Part shown: piece after piece, positions 3,569 through 24,332 of the stretch | How positions within the stretch are numbered: position 1 is the first letter of the stretch | Layout of the letters: each line of letters opens with the position of its first letter | Source of the DNA: Nanobdellota archaeon | Lineage (GTDB): Archaea; Nanobdellota; Nanobdellia; Pacearchaeales; GW2011-AR1 | Assembly (NCBI GenBank): GCA_038045365.1 | Contig: JBBSYH010000003.1 | Location: forward strand, 1-24,332 | DNA length: 24,332 nucleotides | Direction of reading: 5' to 3' | The notes under the pieces: generated by a model | What the model was told of the DNA's origin: nothing | What the model saw: only the letters and a program-made list of their open reading frames with translations | The model's database searches: none | Made by a program: the position numbers and the translations under genes

Positions 3569-4834
3569 ATGGATATGTCGAGATTTGAGCCTGGAGATGA
3601 AGTTAGATTGCGTCTTGCGCAGGAAGAGCTTGATGGAACTATACTGGAGAGTGCAGATAAGAATATTGTATTGATAAAGCTGGAATCAGGATATAATATT
3701 GGAATTCCTAAAGAAAATATTTTGGCTGGGAGAGTTTTAAAGAAGTTTAGCGGGAGAGAATGGAAAGATGTAGTTCAGAAAATTAATCCAGAATTGCCTT
3801 GTATTGGACTTGTTATTACAGGAGGGACAATTGCCTCAAAATTAGATGCAAAAACAGGCGGAGTAAAACCACTTACGAATGCAGGAGAATTAGCTTTGTT
3901 TTATCCTGAATTGTTTTCTATGGCGAATGTCATTGTAAAGAATGAATTTTTAATATCTTCAGAGTCAATGTCGAGTTATCATTGGATAAAGATTGCAGAA
4001 AGTGTCAAGGAATTGCTTGATGACTCTAAAGTTAAAGGAGTGATTGTTACACATGGGACAGATACATTGCATTATACTGCTGCTGCTCTTTCTTTCTTTT
4101 TGAAAAATTTGAGTAAGCCTGTTGTTTTGACATATTCGCAAAGAAGTATTGACAGGGCGAGCAGTGATGCGTATTTGAATTTACAATGTGCTGCAAAAAT
4201 GGCTTTGTCAGATTGTGCTGAAGTGATGCTTGTTGGACATGCAAACTTAAATGACGAGTTTTGTCATGCTTTAAAGGGAGCTAAAGTACGGAAGATGCAT
4301 TCGAGCAGAAGAGATGCTTTTCAGCCTGTTAATTGCGAGCCAATCGCTAAAGTGTGGTCTGATAGAATTGAATTTATTTCAAAATATAAAAAAAGAAATG
4401 AGGGAAAAACTGAATTGGATGTTTCATATACTGACAAAGTTGCTCTTGTGAAATTTTATCCGGGGCAGGATCCATCTATTCTTGACTTTCATGCTTTAAA
4501 ATATAAAGGGATTGTTCTGGAAATGAGCGGTTTGGGGCATGTTGCTGCATCAGATTCTATGCAGAGCTGGGTTCCTAAACTGAAGAAACATATTCATGAC
4601 GGATTTATTATTTGTGCAGCAGCGCAGACTTTGCATGGGAGGCTTGACCCTTATGTATATGGCAATGGGCGCGAGTTAGCTGAAGCAGGAGTTATTTTTT
4701 TAGAGGACATGCTTGTTGAAACAGCTCTTGTGAAATTGGGCTTTGTTCTTGGACATTATGGATGGAAAGGCAAAGTAAAGGAAAAAATGCTGGAGAATTT
4801 TGCTGGAGAGTTGAATGAGAGATTGACTATTTAG
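3569..4834 (+). CDS. gatD: Glutamyl-tRNA(Gln) amidotransferase subunit D
   Basis: The 421-aa ORF has an N-terminal GatD-specific domain followed by a type I asparaginase fold with VITGGTIAS and THGTDTL motifs. A TTTTATAG box lies about 25 nt upstream of the ATG. Confidence 0.9.
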   Translation: MDMSRFEPGDEVRLRLAQEELDGTILESADKNIVLIKLESGYNIGIPKENILAGRVLKKFSGREWKDVVQKINPELPCIGLVITGGTIASKLDAKTGGVKPLTNAGELALFYPELFSMANVIVKNEFLISSESMSSYHWIKIAESVKELLDDSKVKGVIVTHGTDTLHYTAAALSFFLKNLSKPVVLTYSQRSIDRASSDAYLNLQCAAKMALSDCAEVMLVGHANLNDEFCHALKGAKVRKMHSSRRDAFQPVNCEPIAKVWSDRIEFISKYKKRNEGKTELDVSYTDKVALVKFYPGQDPSILDFHALKYKGIVLEMSGLGHVAASDSMQSWVPKLKKHIHDGFIICAAAQTLHGRLDPYVYGNGRELAEAGVIFLEDMLVETALVKLGFVLGHYGWKGKVKEKMLENFAGELNERLTI

Positions 4835-8468: not shown

Positions 8469-8930
8469 ATGGGAGCAAAATCAGTCGAAAATCATTTATT
8501 TTTTTTGAAAGAACGTTTGCAATTTAATTCATTAAAGCAAGGCAAAGTTTTAGTGCTTAATTCTGCTGCTAATTATGATATTGATGGGAAAAAACATTCT
8601 ATTGATGTTGCATTGGGCATAGCAAAGGGAATGCCGAAGAGGAATGATCTTTATTTGATGTCTTTTTTATTAACTGATTTGCCTGAAAGTAAGGAATTTT
8701 ATGATTTAGTCAATGAAAAGTGCGAGGCAGATGGGACGCAAAGATGTTTTGTAAGTTGTTTGGATGAAAGATTAGTAGCTTATACTCCGCGTAAAGATCA
8801 GTTGCATCATGCAGCACTCTGCCATCCTCTTACATTAAGTGATGTTCGCAAGGATTTTGATTATCATCATATGCAAAGGATTTTTACAACAACTACGCTT
8901 TATACTCTATCACCTAATTCTTTGAAATAA
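8469..8930 (+). CDS. Hypothetical protein (153 aa)
   Basis: The ORF is long for AT-rich DNA. TTTAAAAA at 8431-8438 is at promoter distance. No family was recognised. Confidence 0.55.
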   Translation: MGAKSVENHLFFLKERLQFNSLKQGKVLVLNSAANYDIDGKKHSIDVALGIAKGMPKRNDLYLMSFLLTDLPESKEFYDLVNEKCEADGTQRCFVSCLDERLVAYTPRKDQLHHAALCHPLTLSDVRKDFDYHHMQRIFTTTTLYTLSPNSLK

Positions 8931-9073
8931 TTATGTCAAGGAACTTGAAGAAAACCTTGCCTTTCAAGGCAAGGTTGTTCCTTGAGCATCCAAAAGTCCT
9001 AAACAAACCATGGGCTAAAGCCCATGGTCAAACACAAGGACTTTTTGATGTTGTAACTTAATAGAAGTTACAA
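8931..9073 (+). repeat. Multi-hairpin repeat element, copy 1 (long form)
   Basis: The 11-mer TTATGTCAAGG plus a 75-nt core (8975-9049) recur at 17377-17462 with one mismatch. Copy 1 has an extra 33 nt (8942-8974). Perfect stems seen: TCAAGGAAC/GTTCCTTGA, AACCTTGCC/GGCAAGGTT, CCATGGGC/GCCCATGG and TTGTAACTT/AAGTTACAA. There is also a 14-bp imperfect stem, CATCCAAAAGTCCT/AGGACTTTTTGATG. Confidence 0.85.
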
Positions 9074-9082
9074 TTAGAAAGA

Positions 9083-9090
9083 TTTAAATA
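9083..9090 (+). promoter_or_regulatory. TATA box of the nucleotidyltransferase gene
   Basis: The consensus-like TTTAAATA is centred 26 nt upstream of the ATG at 9112. Confidence 0.5.
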
Positions 9091-9906: not shown

Positions 9907-11346
9907 ATGGAATACACAAAGATAGGATTAAAGACAGGGCTTGAGATTCATCAACAGCTTGATTGCGGAAAGCTTTTCTGTGCTTGTCCTGGATATTTAA
10001 GGAATGATGAGCCGGATTTTACAATTATGAGGAAATTGCATGCTGTTGCAGGGGAAACAGGAGAAATTGATGCTGCGGTCTCTCATGAAATGGAAATTGG
10101 GAGAAAATTTTATTATCAGGGATATAAAGATAGTATTTGTTTAGTAGAGATTGATGAAGAGCCACCACATTTTATTAATGAACTGGCTTTAAATGAAGCG
10201 CTGAAAATTGCTTTATTGTTAAATTGCGAGATTTATCCTATTATACAAATTATGAGAAAGACAGTGATAGATGGGAGCAATACATCTGGTTTTCAGAGAA
10301 CTTTGCTGTTAGCGCATTCTGGTTTTGTAGAGACATCATTTGGAAAAGTAAAAATTGATACTTTATGTTTAGAAGAAGATTCTGCGAGGATTATTAGCAA
10401 GGATAAAGATAAGGCAGTTTATAGACTTGACAGACTTGGAATTCCACTTGTTGAAATTGCAACTGCCCCTGTTTTAGATACTCCGGAGAAAATTAAAGAG
10501 ACAGCGCTTAAATTAGGAGAAATATTAAGAGCTTGCAAAGTGAAGAGGGGAATTGGAACTATAAGGCAGGATGTTAATATGAGCATAAAGGGGCATGAAA
10601 GAGTTGAGATAAAAGGTTTTCAGGATGCTTCAATGATGATTGAAACTATTAGGAAAGAGACAGAGAGACAACAGAGAGAGCTGGGAGAAGGAAAGAAAGA
10701 AGGAGAAGTGAGAAATGCGCTGGAAAATGGCGAAAGTGAGTTTTTGAGGCCCTTACCTGGAAAAGCGAGAATGTATCCTGAAACAGATTTGTTGTTATTG
10801 AGAATTGGAAGAGAGAGAATAAATGAACTGAAGAAAAAACTGCCGAAACTTAAGCATGAGATTCGCGATGAATTACGAAAGAAAGGATTAAGCGACGAGA
10901 TGATTGGGCTTGTGTTGGACGGGCATCTTGATGAATTTGAAGTTTTGTTAAGAGTTTATGATAAGGACGCGAATCTTGTGGCGAAGATGGTTAGTTTGTG
11001 GAGAAATGAGTTTGCCAGTAAACTGAAAAAAAGTATTGGTGAAATAGAAGAGATTTTGAGTGAGAGAGTTTTAGAGAAAGTTTTGGAGGAAATTATAGCA
11101 GGCAGAGTTAATGAAGGAGATACAAAAGGAATATTGTTTAGAATTGCTTCAGGAGAAAATGTTTCAGATGCATTGAAAATTGATAGAACAGGACATGATG
11201 TTTTAGAGGAGCAGATTGCGCAGATTGTCAAGGAAAATCCAGGATTGAGCGCAAATGCTTATATGGGTTTGGTTATACAGAAACTTGGGAAAGGAATTGA
11301 AAAAAGAAAGGCGATGGAGATACTGGAAAGATTAATGAAAAATTGA
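9907..11346 (+). CDS. gatE: Glutamyl-tRNA(Gln) amidotransferase subunit E, short form
   Basis: GatE-specific blocks are present: GLEIHQQLDCGKLFCACP, KLHAVAGETGEIDAAV, CLVEIDEEPPH, MRKTVIDGSNTSGFQRT, GIGTIRQDVNMSI and FLRPLPGKARMYPETD. A helical domain and YqeY-like tail follow. The ORF is only 479 aa. Confidence 0.88.
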   Translation: MEYTKIGLKTGLEIHQQLDCGKLFCACPGYLRNDEPDFTIMRKLHAVAGETGEIDAAVSHEMEIGRKFYYQGYKDSICLVEIDEEPPHFINELALNEALKIALLLNCEIYPIIQIMRKTVIDGSNTSGFQRTLLLAHSGFVETSFGKVKIDTLCLEEDSARIISKDKDKAVYRLDRLGIPLVEIATAPVLDTPEKIKETALKLGEILRACKVKRGIGTIRQDVNMSIKGHERVEIKGFQDASMMIETIRKETERQQRELGEGKKEGEVRNALENGESEFLRPLPGKARMYPETDLLLLRIGRERINELKKKLPKLKHEIRDELRKKGLSDEMIGLVLDGHLDEFEVLLRVYDKDANLVAKMVSLWRNEFASKLKKSIGEIEEILSERVLEKVLEEIIAGRVNEGDTKGILFRIASGENVSDALKIDRTGHDVLEEQIAQIVKENPGLSANAYMGLVIQKLGKGIEKRKAMEILERLMKN

Positions 11347-13729: not shown

Positions 13730-14020
13730 ATGAAAAAGGAAGATTTGGATAGAAATATTTCTGTAAAAGCGTCAAAGCAAATATCAGAAATTAAAAAAGG
13801 CAATAAAGTAAAAATTGATGGAAAAGATTATGAAGTAGATGCGCATTATGTTTTAATTGACCATGCAGGCACAAAGGAAATGGCAATTGAGCTGTTTGAC
13901 AAAGAGGATAAAGATTATCAGCTGCGTTATTTTTCAGATCAAGTTGAAAAAACTCTTGAGCTATATGAATTGCAGGAGATTATTTATGTCAAGAAGCAAT
14001 TTTCTAAGATTGAGTGGTAA
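13730..14020 (+). CDS. Hypothetical 96-aa protein between gatC and gatA
   Basis: The ORF starts 4 nt after the gatC stop and ends 29 nt before gatA. The segment IKKGNKVKIDGKDYEVDAHYVLIDHAGTKEMAIELFD resembles the SH3/KOW-like N-domain of aIF5A/EF-P, but this is by eye only. Confidence 0.6.
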   Translation: MKKEDLDRNISVKASKQISEIKKGNKVKIDGKDYEVDAHYVLIDHAGTKEMAIELFDKEDKDYQLRYFSDQVEKTLELYELQEIIYVKKQFSKIEW

Positions 14021-14049
14021 GATTTAATAACTTTATTATATAAAAAAGA

Positions 14050-15366
14050 ATGGGATTTTATATGGAAGCAGAAGATAAAGTAGTGAAATACCTGAAAAAG
14101 ATAAAGAAGGAGAATAAAAAAATTAATGCTATTTTGCATGTTAATGAGAATGCTCTTGAAGAAGCGAGAAAGATTGATGAAAAAGTAAAGAGAATAGGAA
14201 AGAAAGGAAGATTGTATGGATATGTGATTGCTGTAAAGAGCAATATTAATGTTAAAGGAATGATATGCAACTGCGCTTCTAAAGTTTTGGAAAATTATAT
14301 TGCTCCTTATGATGCGACTGTGATTTCAAAAATAAAGGCAGAAGATGGAGTAATAATTGGAATGACTAATATGGATGAGTTTGCTGCAGGCAGCAGCGGG
14401 GAGAACAGCGCTTTTGGAGCAACACAAAATCCTTCTGCTTTTGGGAGAATTTCTGGAGGAAGCAGTTCTGGAAGTGCGGCTGCTGTTGTTGCTGGATTTT
14501 GCGATGTTGCTTTGGGAAGCGATACAGGAGGAAGCATTAGAATGCCTGCTTCACATTGCGGAGTTGTAGGAGTGAAGCCGAGTTATGGTTTAGTGAGCAG
14601 ATATGGGCTTATTGATTTGAGTATGAGCTTAGATCAAATAGGAGATTTGGCAAGAAATGTTGAAGATGCTGCACTGGTTTTAGATGTTATTAGGGGTAAA
14701 GACGAGAGAGATGCAAATACTTTTGATTCTAGAAAAATAGAGATAGAAAAAATTAACAAGATAAAAGTTGGAATTTTGAGAATTAAAGGAGTTGATTCTA
14801 AAATACAGAAAATTATTGATAAAAAAGTTGAAGAAATAATCAAGAAAAATGGATGGAGCTTAAAGAATATTGAAATTAAGCATATTGAACTGGCTGTTCA
14901 GACATATTATCCTCTTGTTTATAGCGAATTTTTTTCTGCGACGCGGAGATTTGACGGCAGGCGTTATGGGAAGAAAATAGAAGATTTTTGCGGCGAAGAA
15001 GTTTTAAGAAGAATTTTTGGAGGAAGGGAAATTACGAAAGCTGAATTTGAAGGTGCTTATTATGAGAAAGCATTGGCTGTTAAAGAATTAATTAAAGAGG
15101 AATTTGAGAAAGCTTTTGGAGAAGTAGATTGCTTAGTATTACCGACCTCTCCTGGATTGCCTTGGAAGATTGGAGAAAGAAAAAAGATGAAAGTTGAAGA
15201 GATTTATGCTTTAGATGCTTTAACTATTCCGGCGAATCTGGCTGAAATTTGCGCGATTTCTCTGCCTGCAGGAAAGATTAATGGGATTCCTATAGGTATG
15301 CAGGTGATGTGTGCTAAAGAGAAGGAAGGAAAGATGCTAGGAATCGCAAAAGCATTTAGTAATTAA
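14050..15366 (+). CDS. gatA: Asp/Glu-tRNA amidotransferase subunit A (amidase signature family)
   Basis: The 438-aa ORF has the amidase signature GGSSSGSAAAVVAGF...GSDTGGSIRMPAS and the catalytic Lys context AVKSNINVKG. An alternative start is ATG 14062. Confidence 0.9.
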   Translation: MGFYMEAEDKVVKYLKKIKKENKKINAILHVNENALEEARKIDEKVKRIGKKGRLYGYVIAVKSNINVKGMICNCASKVLENYIAPYDATVISKIKAEDGVIIGMTNMDEFAAGSSGENSAFGATQNPSAFGRISGGSSSGSAAAVVAGFCDVALGSDTGGSIRMPASHCGVVGVKPSYGLVSRYGLIDLSMSLDQIGDLARNVEDAALVLDVIRGKDERDANTFDSRKIEIEKINKIKVGILRIKGVDSKIQKIIDKKVEEIIKKNGWSLKNIEIKHIELAVQTYYPLVYSEFFSATRRFDGRRYGKKIEDFCGEEVLRRIFGGREITKAEFEGAYYEKALAVKELIKEEFEKAFGEVDCLVLPTSPGLPWKIGERKKMKVEEIYALDALTIPANLAEICAISLPAGKINGIPIGMQVMCAKEKEGKMLGIAKAFSN

Positions 15367-17337: not shown

Positions 17338-17378
17338 AGCTTAAGCTTTTATATATAAATTTATTTTTTTTCTTTTTT
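17336..17378 (+). terminator. ftsZ 3' palindrome plus long oligo-T tract
   Basis: A perfect 14-nt palindrome AAAGCTTAAGCTTT (17336-17349) is followed by T8-C-T6 (17364-17378). Confidence 0.5.
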
Positions 17379-17462
17379 ATGTCAAGGTTGTTCCTTGAGC
17401 ATCCAAAAGTCCTAAACAAACCATGGGCTAAAGCCCATAGTCAAACACAAGGACTTTTTGAT
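17377..17462 (+). repeat. Multi-hairpin repeat element, copy 2 (short form)
   Basis: This copy is identical to copy 1 except for the 33-nt indel and G to A at 17439, which creates a C-A mismatch in the apical stem. It lies between convergent ftsZ and the nitroreductase gene, and supplies the last codons and stop of the latter. Confidence 0.85.
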
Positions 17463-18004
17463 TTTATAAAGACTGGTTTTTTATTTTTATCCCATTCTTC
17501 CCAAAAAATAGAGGATTCTAATGTTTTTTTTCTTTTATGAGGGGATTTTTCTTTTTCATAGCCTACTGGAATTACTGCTTCAATTTGAATATGTGCGGGA
17601 ATTTTAAGAAGTTCTTTTATTAGTTTATCAGTGTATGCACCAACCCAACATGCGGAAATTCCTAGATTAATAAGTTTAAGCAGAAAAGTTTGAATTGTTG
17701 CACCTGCTTGTTGTCTACTGTAAATACGGCCTCTTTCCCCATATAGATTTTTAAGATGAATGTTATCTGAACAAACTGCGACAAGTGTTTTTGATTCCAA
17801 TATCCATTTTTGCTCTGAAAATTCTGCTATTTTGCTTATTTTTTCAGGGTCTTCAATAATAATAAATTTTAAATTATTGTGATTGCCTGCGAATGGAGAT
17901 TGGAGCGCAGAATCTATTGCTTGAAGTATATCTTTCCAATCCGGCTTTTTGCTTTTGAAAGAGCGTACAGATCTTCTTTTCTGAATTACAGAGTCAAATT
18001 CCAT
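17441..18004 (-). CDS. Nitroreductase-family protein
   Basis: The 187-aa ORF starts with the RRSVRSF motif and shows a typical NADH-oxidase/nitroreductase fold pattern (QSPFAGNHNNLKFIII, QQAGATIQ, ISACWVGA). Confidence 0.8.
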   Translation of the reverse strand: MEFDSVIQKRRSVRSFKSKKPDWKDILQAIDSALQSPFAGNHNNLKFIIIEDPEKISKIAEFSEQKWILESKTLVAVCSDNIHLKNLYGERGRIYSRQQAGATIQTFLLKLINLGISACWVGAYTDKLIKELLKIPAHIQIEAVIPVGYEKEKSPHKRKKTLESSIFWEEWDKNKKPVFIKSKSPCV

Positions 18005-18041: not shown

Positions 18042-19130
18042 TTAAAGTTTTATTTCAGCGTTGGCTATAAGCTGATTTTTGTGGTAAAGAACAATATATT
18101 GCCCTTCTGCTATGGCTTCTACTAGTTTTGAAAAGATAAAAATGTATTTTTTTGACTTTTTTAAAGCGCCATCATGCAATTCTCCAAGATGTCTGATTCG
18201 AGCTTTAAGATGAGGAGGGATTTTTTCTTTTGGATTTATAAAGTGCAGGTTTTTCAGGAAAACTTGCTTTTTTGCCAAGGAAGGATGAGATTCAGGAGCA
18301 ACAATAAGTACATTAGATTTTAATTTTTTTTCAGCGATATAGAAGCGTTTTTGAGATAGATTTATCGGCTTTTTAATTTCAATTCCAATATGAGTGCCTG
18401 TTTTTTGTCCTATCGTATAAAAAAATATTCCTTTATGAGTTCCTATCACTTTTCCTTCTGGTGTTTTCACTATTCCTGGCTTTTCTCTAATTTTCCTTTT
18501 CAAAAATTTTTGCATATTCTGTTCTCCTATAAAGCAAATTCCTGTTGTTCCATGCTTGTTCCAGTTTGGAAATTTATTTTGTTTTGCTATTTTTCTAACA
18601 TTTTGTTTTTTCAAGTTTCCTAATGGGAAAATAGTATGTGAAAGATCTTTTTGCGAGAGATCTGATAGAAAATATGACTGATCTTTTGATTTATCTTCTC
18701 CTGCAAGAAGTTTATAGCCTTGAAGAGTTTTTTTGATTTTTGCGTAATGGCCCGTAGCTATATAATCGGCATTGTATTTTTTTGCGATTTTCCAAAGTAT
18801 AGGAAATTTTATTATTTTGTTGCATGCTATATCTGGATTAGGGGTTTTTCCTAAAGAATATGATTTTAACATTGGTTTTAGAATATTTTTTTTGTATTCT
18901 TTTTCAAAATCCAAAAAAATTAGAGGAATATCCAGTAATGCAGAGATTTTTTTTGCTATTTTTAATTCATCTAGATATAAACATTCCCCTGTAAATTTAT
19001 TTTTTGCATTAGAATAAACTTTTAGAAAAACTCCTATAACATTATATCCTTGTTTTTTTAAAATGAGCGCAGCTACGCTGGAATCTACTCCTCCTGACAT
19101 GCCGAGCAAAATTGTTTTTTGTTTTTTCAT
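18042..19130 (-). CDS. mnmA: tRNA 2-thiouridine(34) synthase MnmA (bacterial type)
   Basis: The 362-aa ORF has the PP-loop GMSGGVDSSVAA and catalytic Cys contexts NPDIACNK and GICFIGE. The C-terminal barrel domain is present. Confidence 0.85.
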   Translation of the reverse strand: MKKQKTILLGMSGGVDSSVAALILKKQGYNVIGVFLKVYSNAKNKFTGECLYLDELKIAKKISALLDIPLIFLDFEKEYKKNILKPMLKSYSLGKTPNPDIACNKIIKFPILWKIAKKYNADYIATGHYAKIKKTLQGYKLLAGEDKSKDQSYFLSDLSQKDLSHTIFPLGNLKKQNVRKIAKQNKFPNWNKHGTTGICFIGEQNMQKFLKRKIREKPGIVKTPEGKVIGTHKGIFFYTIGQKTGTHIGIEIKKPINLSQKRFYIAEKKLKSNVLIVAPESHPSLAKKQVFLKNLHFINPKEKIPPHLKARIRHLGELHDGALKKSKKYIFIFSKLVEAIAEGQYIVLYHKNQLIANAEIKL

Positions 19131-22313: not shown

Positions 22314-24332
22314 TCATAATCTTTGAATAAACCCTTTTTTTGGCTTAAATATAATAGAAGATTCTTCTAATTTTCTTAAAGCATCTTCTAATTCAATGCT
22401 AGAAATCTTTCCTTCTAAAGATTTTTCAAGTTCTTCTATAGGAATTAGTTTTCCGAGCCTTGATTCAAGCTGAGATATGTTTTCCCTTACAATATGTATT
22501 TTATTTTTAGTAGATGTGGTAATGCCAATAATTACTTTATCAATGTCAAATGTTTTTGCTTCTTCGTCGTATCCAACTTGAGTAAGGGATATTTTAAGAA
22601 GTTCTATTGCTTTTCTCGCGTCTTCTCTTTTAACTTCATTGCTCATCCTCATTTTAGCATGCGCTTCAGAGAGACGAACTATTCCTTCAAGCTGTCTTGC
22701 TGTTATAGGTATTGGTTTTATTGCAGAATCAGAATTTATAGATTGGTTTCTTAGCCTGATATAAAATTCTTTTATTTCTTCAATTGCTTCATCTGTTAGC
22801 TTTGGCTTATATTTTTTTCTAGTGTATGAAATATATTTTCTAATTAATTTTGCGTCTATTACGTCCCTGATAACTTCTTGCTTGTGCTCTTCTAAGACGT
22901 GAGAAGCTATTGCTTCATCTTGGATTTTATTTGGTATATCTTTAATTACAAAGATTACATCGAATCTGCTTAACAAGGCAGGAGAAATATCAATTTGTTG
23001 CGGAATTGGAGTATATGGGTCAAATCTTCCAAGTTTTGGATTGCCTGCAGCTAATACACTTGTTTCTGCACGAAGAGTGGCTTGAATATTTGCTTTAGAT
23101 ATTGTTACTGTTTGTTGTTCTAGAGCTTCGTGCATTGCGCTTCTGTCTTGCTCATCCATTTTCTCTATTTCATCAATGCATACTGTTCCTTTATTTGACA
23201 AAACCATTGCTCCTGCTTCAAGAGACCATCCTCTTAGAAATTCGTCTTTTACAACAGCAGCAGTCAGACCAGCAGCAGTTGCTGCTTTTCCTGAGACATA
23301 GCGGCCTTTTGGGGCAATTGTTGATGTGAATTTGAGCATTACTGATTTTGCAACTCCTGGATCTCCAACAAGAAGTATATGCATATCTCCTCTTGTCTGC
23401 CCGCCATCAGATTTAATTTTTTTCACTCCTCCAAAAAGCTGAAGAAGTATAGCTTCTTTTATATTATCAAATCCATAAATGCTTGGAGCAATACTCTGTG
23501 AAAGCCGTTTGTAAATGTTTGGACTAGCAGAGATTTCTAAAATTTGCTCTATGTCTTCTTCTGAAATGTTAAGATCTTCAAAAGTTTCTTCTAGTGGAAT
23601 TATATTGTTTGCTTCAAGAGCAATATCAAATCTAGTTGATATAGATCCGGTTTGTAAGGGTACAGGAATTTCTTTTAATATACCATATAATTTTACTTTG
23701 CTTCCCGGAGTTGTTTTTTCTTCCATTTTAGAATCTACTAAATCTTCTTGGAGAAAGACATTTATTCTTCTTGGCTGTTCTCCTCCATCTAAAGAGTCGG
23801 GTGATTCTTCTATTACCAAGCGTTGTGTGTCAACCATTTCTTTAGAAAGAAGTTTGAATGGGCTTTTCCAGCCACATGAGCATCTGCTAGGCTCTCTAAA
23901 TTTTTTATCTATTTGCATAACTGATAGAGTTGCACCGCAATTAGGACATTCGAATTTTGCATTTACTACTTGAGGACGTACATCAGAAGCTTGCCTTACT
24001 ATTCCTTCCACCCAAATTAATTTGTTAAGATGTTTTGCTCTGATGTCTCTTATTTTTATATTGAATGAACTTTTTGGAAGTTCAATAAATCTTATTCTGG
24101 GTTTTTTTACTAATCCTGACTCTTCCAATGCATTTTCAAGAACAGAAATTGTTTGTTCTGGAGAATCTTCTATGCTGTCAGAAAGCATTAGTGAAAATTC
24201 AGCTATCTGCTGAAAACTTAACATTATTATATGTTCTTCTGCCCTTAAGGAATAGCCTATTTCTTTTTTGTGAGCATCAAAAAATCTTTTTGCTTCTAAA
24301 ATGAGTTCTTCCTGTTTTTTCTTTTTTTCCAT
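22314..24332 (-). CDS. mcm: Replicative helicase MCM
   Basis: The 672-aa ORF is complete, with its ATG at the last base of the window. It has a Zn motif (CPNCG...CSCG), Walker A (LLVGDPGVAKS), Walker B (CIDEIEKM), sensor 1 (VLAAGNP), Arg finger (SRFD) and a C-terminal wH domain. No intein is present. Confidence 0.97.
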   Translation of the reverse strand: MEKKKKQEELILEAKRFFDAHKKEIGYSLRAEEHIIMLSFQQIAEFSLMLSDSIEDSPEQTISVLENALEESGLVKKPRIRFIELPKSSFNIKIRDIRAKHLNKLIWVEGIVRQASDVRPQVVNAKFECPNCGATLSVMQIDKKFREPSRCSCGWKSPFKLLSKEMVDTQRLVIEESPDSLDGGEQPRRINVFLQEDLVDSKMEEKTTPGSKVKLYGILKEIPVPLQTGSISTRFDIALEANNIIPLEETFEDLNISEEDIEQILEISASPNIYKRLSQSIAPSIYGFDNIKEAILLQLFGGVKKIKSDGGQTRGDMHILLVGDPGVAKSVMLKFTSTIAPKGRYVSGKAATAAGLTAAVVKDEFLRGWSLEAGAMVLSNKGTVCIDEIEKMDEQDRSAMHEALEQQTVTISKANIQATLRAETSVLAAGNPKLGRFDPYTPIPQQIDISPALLSRFDVIFVIKDIPNKIQDEAIASHVLEEHKQEVIRDVIDAKLIRKYISYTRKKYKPKLTDEAIEEIKEFYIRLRNQSINSDSAIKPIPITARQLEGIVRLSEAHAKMRMSNEVKREDARKAIELLKISLTQVGYDEEAKTFDIDKVIIGITTSTKNKIHIVRENISQLESRLGKLIPIEELEKSLEGKISSIELEDALRKLEESSIIFKPKKGFIQRL

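Follow-up and report, generated by a model that had tools for sequence, protein, structure and literature searches.

The two hairpin-rich intergenic segments in the window (the whole 24,332-nt stretch of DNA analyzed here) are, in our reading, copies of a non-coding and non-autonomous IS200/IS605-type element of about 119 nt, that is, a PATE or, loosely, a MITE. We place the probability of this reading at roughly 0.6. The repeat and its hairpins are real, and a mobile element, not an RNA gene, is what they most likely represent. The kind of element is already known; its unusual features are loops that are inverted between copies and a hairpin that is found across domains. The host is a groundwater DPANN archaeon with a GC content of 33% (contig Hain_H41_01um_R3_338, 71.5 kb, Hainich aquifer), to whose proteins NCBI gives the name “Nanoarchaeota archaeon.” Genes in the window include those for MCM, eRF1, aIF2-beta, GatB/GatD, and FtsZ, along with several toxin-antitoxin pairs.

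Within the window, the repeat spans 8962-9056 and 17375-17469 (95 nt, 94% identity), and a search found only these two copies of the unit there. As the first-pass annotation had proposed, a 75-nt core differs between them at a single position (G9026 versus A17439), the 11-mer TTATGTCAAGG lies 5' of both, and every stem that it listed sits where it had been placed. It had also described a two-copy element, which is true of the window but not of the population. We scanned metagenome contigs with a query that combined the apical hairpin with a portion of the lower stem, and the eight stretches returned all came from Hainich assemblies. Aligned with the window copies, they place a unit of 117-119 nt at no fewer than 10 distinct insertion sites with unrelated flanks, where L120 and L125 count as one site and L126 holds two copies. 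The contigs represent one groundwater Nanoarchaeota (DPANN) population, with a GC content of 32-34% where they exceed 2 kb and a coverage of about 7 in the seven longer ones. L126 belongs to the same NCBI MAG as the window, the accession of the ATPase beside its copies (MEK6928469) being close to that of the window nitroreductase (MEK6928378); the coverage of the two contigs in one assembly is 5.66 and 5.84. Four other assemblies have the sequence of copy 2 at the same locus. Along the 71-kb source contig, a walk from 22.6 to 64.3 kb revealed no further copies, and within 42 kb of this contig there are the two known copies only. Viral contigs searched with two patterns gave 0 matches. Three of the contigs with the unit (L002, L121, and L125) are short and have ends that fall inside it, within hairpin 2, as expected of a repeat that breaks assemblies.

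Across the 10 sites, the copies are at least 95% identical and differ in two loop states, one deletion, three point changes, and nothing else; copy 1 and L124 are 100% identical over 119 nt. Both orientations of the element occur. The limits of the unit are (TT)ATGTCAAGGAAC…AAGGACTTTTTGAT, giving 117 nt, or 119 nt with the leading TT, and the flanks diverge immediately beyond (Table 1). The termini can also be written as ATGTCAAGG… on the left and …CTTTTTGAT| on the right. The 33-nt difference between the window copies had been taken for an insertion in copy 1. Since nine of the ten sites carry the long form and copy 2 is the short exception, it is instead a deletion in copy 2. The deletion is bounded by direct repeats, CAAGG at 8937-8941 and 8970-8974, and slippage between the two would account for this later loss.

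Table 1. Positions of the element copies, their hairpins, and adjoining features in the window.
Feature	Position	Strand	Basis or remark
Copy 1, full-length form, TT-ATGTCAAGGAAC...AAGGACTTTTTGAT	8931..9049	+ (probable top strand)	Boundaries from 10 sites with unrelated flanks
Copy 2, 86-nt deletion derivative lacking the 33 nt equivalent to 8942-8974; loop TAAA, variant A17439	17377..17462	+	Alignment
Hairpin 1, left-end-like, compound	8936..8985	+	Fold; outer stem 8936-8944 / 8977-8985, inner stem 8953-8961 / 8968-8976
Hairpin 1, center dinucleotide	8964-8965	+	TC in copy 1; GA in two other copies
Hairpin 2, right-end-like, compound	8987..9050	+	Fold; lower stem 8987-9000 / 9037-9050
Hairpin 2, internal loops	9001-9006, 9029-9036	+	
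Hairpin 2, apical 9-bp stem	9007-9015 / 9020-9028	+	
Hairpin 2, apical loop TAAA	9016-9019	+	Flipped state; TTTA in 6/10 copies
Perfect 9-bp hairpin, TTGTAACTT/AAGTTACAA	9051..9073	.	Unique flank, outside the repeat
Nitroreductase gene	17441..18004	-	ORF and Pfam match; last six codons SKSPCV plus TGA (17443-17441) from the element

The unit consists of two adjacent compound hairpins, each with a lower stem, an internal loop, and an apical hairpin, and both termini are close to one of them: hairpin 1 starts 3-5 nt from the 5' end, and hairpin 2 extends to the 3' end. The 20-nt tip of hairpin 2 reads CCATGGGC-TTTA/TAAA-GCCCATGG. G9050, which is paired in copy 1 alone, lies outside the repeat. 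Copy 1 folds at -65.9 kcal/mol into three hairpins (z = -10.6 against shuffles), while the fold of copy 2 is weaker (z = -3.3 on the + strand and -4.7 on the - strand); fold strength is about equal on both strands. The run of five T residues that had been noted at the end of both copies belongs to the lower stem of hairpin 2, whose 3' arm (CTTTTTGAT) it forms, and is not a separate terminator. The hairpin that had been described just downstream of copy 1 exists but is not part of the element, as neither the other copies nor the other examined loci of this genome contain it. It is followed at 9083-9090 by TTTAAATA, probably the promoter from which a 248-aa ORF with no Pfam match is transcribed as a leaderless mRNA; the ATG of this ORF (9112) lies about 25 nt further on.

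Such structure could also be maintained at the level of RNA. A small-RNA gene family, or a functional 3'-UTR or terminator module in which RNA structure is selected, would be in line with the very stable fold and the consistent placement at gene 3' ends, and IS200/IS605 ends do yield RNAs in other organisms. We nevertheless regard this explanation, which takes up the first-pass proposal of a new small RNA, as very improbable. The TATA-like octamers on which it drew, TTTATACT (8899-8906) and TATATAAA (17352-17359), are present but lie in non-repeated flank outside the unit. Octamers of this type centered 23-29 nt upstream were seen at 3 of 9 sites, compared with 27.6% of all window positions, which is a chance frequency; the copies share no promoter, and the element has no TATA box of its own. 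The orientation of the copies relative to neighboring genes is mixed, the loops occur in both orientations, and copies interrupt ORF ends. On the + strand, the point variants produce a C·A mismatch in copy 2 and T·G in L126b, which is not consistent with a single RNA strand. Because the copies are identical apart from the loop states, the deletion, and the point changes, there is no covariation among them, and many copies without stem covariation are among the findings that the first-pass annotation had itself named as refuting its proposal. Its remark that no known RNA-family signature is recognizable holds as well: an Rfam 15 scan of the window (E <=1) returned only two tRNAs and one chance snoRNA match inside the MCM gene, and a scan of six related loci returned nothing relevant. 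The snoRNA match (23760-23858) is to a Drosophila C/D model and reaches 27 bits, where the gathering score is 101 (E = 0.35). An H/ACA guide RNA, suggested by the succession of lower stem, pocket, and upper stem, was considered and rejected, given that there is no ACA box on either strand, no K-turn (the upper stem is perfect), and the same architecture on both strands.

The insertion sites provide a different line of evidence. Copies are almost always found at gene 3' ends and mostly between convergent genes (copies oriented alike). Three unrelated opposite-strand ORFs (the window nitroreductase and those at L119 and L121) enter the unit by 22 nt in the same frame, and all end in …SKSPCV* on the TGA of the unit (window 17441-17462). 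Among nitroreductase homologues, the tails are unrelated and variable at this place, and the C-terminal tail of the window protein does not align with them. ORF read-in combined with variable homologue tails has the look of an insertion rather than of a conserved gene. No homologue of the nitroreductase is closer than 67% identity, which is too distant to serve as an empty site. The targets are T-runs, belonging either to the oligo-T terminator of an upstream gene or to the AAA-rich tail of an opposite-strand gene. The 5' flank ends in TT at eight of nine sites (P ~3e-6), the 3' flank starts with TT at seven of ten (P ~2e-4), and TT is present on both sides at six of the nine complete sites. 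GC skew is positive on the top strand of the element at 8 of 10 sites, an orientation bias that is not formally significant.

TT on both sides could represent a target duplication of 2 bp; IS200/IS605 elements produce no such duplications, and this counts against the IS200/IS605 reading. If so, the unit would be a classical MITE that was moved by cut and paste by a DDE transposase, with TT as the duplicated target and the hairpins as incidental features. The enrichment of TT in both flanks fits such a mechanism, as does the nitroreductase tail that one would obtain by removing the element and one TT, a plausible …FIKKEKK*. The first-pass suggestion of a MITE-like unit is also borne out insofar as there are dispersed, near-identical copies in both orientations, assembly breaks, an internal deletion, and insertions at ORF ends. 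The unit is not a classical MITE, however, because it lacks terminal inverted repeats: none of 10 bp or more were found in it, and its 5' end (ATGTCAAGGAAC) matches the reverse complement of its 3' end (ATCAAAAAGTCC) at only 6 of 12 positions. Moreover, the flanks do not match at three sites, whose 3' sides read GT, AT, and AG, insertion within a T-run yields TT on both sides with no duplication, and the hairpin is tied to Y1 rather than DDE transposases. On balance, we consider a DDE-mobilized MITE unlikely. Two further candidates for paired or arrayed sites were rejected. The window copies are not the attL and attR of an integrated element, as the 8.4 kb between them hold housekeeping genes (GatB, a GatA-like amidase, an MBL-fold protein, and FtsZ), and they are not integron attC sites, as there is no cassette array and the other copies are solitary.

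To follow the hairpin beyond this population, we scanned one genome per species with the apical 18-mer CCATGGGCTAAAGCCCAT. This resulted in 107 stretches from about 50 genomes of both domains (L003-L109). Archaea account for twelve of the genomes, including nine from DPANN, and CPR bacteria for three; both DPANN and CPR are strongly over-represented. In the archaeal and CPR matches, the identical hairpin sits atop a genome-specific lower stem, inside a dispersed repeat of 99-137 nt, while many of the bacterial matches are REP-like repeats. The apical hairpin adjoins Y1 (HUH) transposase genes at five loci and a TnpB gene at one. In an Altiarchaeota genome (L010), a left-end hairpin lies 137 nt upstream of the transposase gene (Y1_Tnp, Pfam E = 1e-28), and in Nanoarchaeota H43 from the same aquifer (L063), a right-end hairpin lies 9 nt past the stop codon (Y1_Tnp, Pfam E = 2e-27). 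Three loci of Bacteroidota (L004, L059, and L067) have the hairpin near a RAYT-like Y1 gene. At the sixth locus, from an archaeon (L048), a left-end hairpin is found 88 nt upstream of a gene for TnpB (OrfB_IS605 with Cas12f-like TNB). The apical 20-mer of hairpin 2 recurs without change as the right-end hairpin of the IS200-like element at L063 and as the left-end hairpins at L010 and L048, the likeness to these being confined to the tip and the motif ATGTCAAG. The start of the unit, ATGTCAAGGAAC, resembles the left ends of L048 (AATGTCAAGAAAA-CCATGG…) and of a Woesearchaeota repeat (AATATGTCAGAAATC…).

The TnpA of L063, an IS200/IS605 family transposase by its NCBI name, has 639 homologues, many of them on contigs of 0.5-1.3 kb. 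The layout of the real IS200-like elements emerges from copies with different flanks: a T-rich flank, the left end TAAAGTCTC, a compound hairpin with a TTTA tip, tnpA, and the right end. The right end is GGACG-[8-bp stem]-TTTA-[stem]-AGGATGTCAC|, where the stem varies (CCATGGGC, CTATGGGC/GCCCATAG, and CCTCGCAC/GTGCGAGG) and the loop and flanks are fixed. Five of the eight stem pairs show compensatory change, and 100% of the cells are paired. T-runs precede the real left ends. The unit fits this plan in three ways, with its T-rich 5' flank, its left-end-like start ATGTCAAGGAAC, and its right-end-like hairpin with the same tip. Compared directly, the Nanoarchaeota IS200-like elements (L063, L133-L146) share with the unit an identical right-end hairpin, CCATGGGC-TTTA-GCCCATGG, a compound left-end hairpin, the T-rich 5' flank, the aquifer, and the assembly. 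Unlike the unit, they contain a 128-aa tnpA, and their loop is always TTTA on the sense strand. Their termini, TAAAGTCTC… and …AGGATGTCAC|, also differ from those of the unit, ATGTCAAGG… and …CTTTTTGAT|, as do the IS200-like termini recovered in the form TAAAGTCTC… and …GGATGTCAC|. Hairpin 1 has no GC-TTTA-GC tip, and the left-end hairpin begins 3-5 nt from the end in the unit versus about 9 nt in the real IS elements. One TnpA of the IS200-like family (P0127) is in the same assembly as the unit copies at similar coverage, with ends unlike those of the unit. Neither a Y1 TnpA nor any transposase gene with the exact ends of the unit was found in about 100 kb of this genome, and five look-ups of TnpA homologues for a partner IS yielded related ends but no matching ones. 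A GGATGTCAC motif upstream of the L119 copy has no adjoining hairpin and is probably there by chance.

The bacterial matches also bring to mind repeats that are kept by their hosts. A REP/REPIN-like sequence, maintained by a domesticated RAYT-type Y1 transposase, would be host-associated and not derived from an IS parasite. The same hairpin forms canonical REPs with adjacent CTAC/GTAG in Aliiglaciecola and occurs beside RAYT-like genes in Bacteroidota, and a Haemophilus influenzae REP, GTAGGGTGGGCTTtAGCCCACC, has 14 nt in common with it (PMC2817692). The bacterial REP/RAYT systems share with the unit a GGGC-TTTA-GCCC hairpin core, an association with Y1 HUH transposases, and an intergenic position at gene 3' ends; in contrast to them, the unit has no GTAG, far fewer copies, a greater length, and two hairpins (PMC2817692). 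Neither GTAG nor CTAC occurs in the unit, the number of sites seen is low (about 10), and a 119-nt module of two hairpins is not a palindrome of 20-40 nt or an inverted doublet of these. The nearest archaeal transposases are of the IS200 type, with 128 aa, and are themselves multi-copy on short contigs, and no RAYT was found in the examined loci of this genome. We thus find it improbable that the unit is a REP-like sequence in the keeping of a RAYT. Elsewhere, the 18-mer hairpin reaches considerable numbers: it is arrayed in tandem in Aliiglaciecola (periods of 47, 76, and about 111 nt; adjacent CTAC/GTAG), Saprospira grandis has 11 loci, and one Roseobacteraceae MAG has more than 20.

Among known systems, the IS200/IS605-type mini-element that we favor has its counterpart in the PATEs, which were first described in Haloquadratum walsbyi as deriving from IS200/IS605 (IS605-type) transposons and whose properties, including repeat-mediated core deletions, have been documented (PMC3119063). 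Four features place the unit among PATEs as defined there: it has no terminal inverted repeats, its near-terminal palindromes are related to IS200/IS605, it is non-coding, and it forms a homogeneous multi-copy family (PMC3119063). Like PATEs, it is too short for a protein, its copies are more than 95% identical, it has a palindrome in common with real IS200-type elements, one copy has undergone a repeat-mediated internal deletion, and there is a short sequence preference on the 5' side (PMC3119063). It differs from them in its host, a DPANN (Nanoarchaeota) archaeon, in having two end hairpins that are dissimilar and compound, in having no partner IS found with matching ends, and in the inversion of its loops between copies. 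MITEs occur at high density in some DPANN genomes and are, like the unit, small non-coding intergenic mobile repeats in a Woesearchaeota/Nanoarchaeota-type genome; the survey that reported them demanded terminal inverted repeats (PMC11602168). As the unit has none, it would probably have been missed there, and MITE surveys with this requirement would overlook elements of its kind in general.

We propose the following mechanism. A Y1 (HUH) TnpA encoded elsewhere would recognize the hairpins of the folded, single-stranded top strand (the + strand in the window), excise the unit as single-stranded DNA, and paste it 3' of a T-rich target (…TT|). The usual targets would be oligo-T tracts at gene 3' ends or, on the opposite strand, lysine-rich tails made of AAA codons. 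Effects on the host, such as hairpins at mRNA 3' ends and new stop codons, would be a by-product.

On the same strand, the apical loop of hairpin 2 is TAAA or TTTA in otherwise identical copies. Window copies 1 and 2, L122, and L124 have TAAA, whereas L119, L120 (the same site as L125), L121, L123, and both L126 copies have TTTA. At the center of hairpin 1, L120 and one L126 copy have GA, and seven copies have TC. Of the four combinations that the two loops could form, three were seen; the state of one loop does not depend on that of the other, nor does either depend on the orientation of the element. The state is constant per locus across independent assemblies. Because the states are mutually reverse-complementary and there are no intermediates, inversion is far more parsimonious than paired point mutations, and what the aligned copies look like is a physical flip-flop of the loops. 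Template switching or recombination across the perfect stems is the likely cause; small hairpin-associated inversions are known in chloroplast DNA. We also considered a variant common to copy 2 and L126b as proof of inversion, but it is ambiguous, as it can be explained by an inversion plus one substitution or by two substitutions. Since real IS elements invariably show TTTA in this loop when read on the tnpA-sense strand, the window copies are in the non-canonical state, and with their loops inverted to TAAA, both may be immobile. Hairpin tips are hot spots of nested change in related sequences, too. The right-end hairpin loop at L146 (607-711) holds a 38-nt insert with its own hairpin, and one Saccharibacteria copy (L013) has CCACTGGCTAAAGCCGGTGG where two others (L054 and L105) have CCACTGCAGTGG.

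The identification removes a false lead, in that the segments are not a new structured RNA gene, and adds a hairpin-ended IS200/IS605-type mini-element to the little-studied DPANN mobilome. Elements of this kind fragment assemblies of metagenomes and, in very compact genomes, reshape the 3' ends of genes. An identical 20-nt transposase hairpin in about 50 genomes, together with the loop flip-flop, provides handles on how Y1 transposases recognize hairpins. A more speculative idea, to which we give little credence at present, is that the GC-TTTA-GC-tipped hairpin marks a cross-domain guild of Y1-transposase elements (DPANN, CPR, Bacteroidota, and Proteobacteria) and that, in this DPANN host, the element goes beyond a parasite, in that the loops flip frequently and copies are kept as gene-end modules. 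If this were true, frequent flip-flop would be direct evidence of hairpin extrusion in vivo and of an on/off switch for mobility, and the retained copies would determine the stop codons and 3' ends of genes where hardly any intergenic space exists.

Several other features of these contigs were recorded along the way. A stretch of 471 nt is 89% identical between L119 (9800-10270) and L113 (1663-2133), two loci that are otherwise unrelated; it overlaps a 294-aa ORF with no Pfam match and may be a paralogue or another repeat. On the source contig lie genes for GatD, for a GatE-like protein with GatB_N only, for a GatA-like amidase, and for a second, full GatB (window 3569-4834, 9907-11346, and 13730-15366; L110 6473-7855). 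Further genes there code for several toxin-antitoxin pairs of the PIN/MazE and ParE kinds and for an MnmA of bacterial type (18042-19130).
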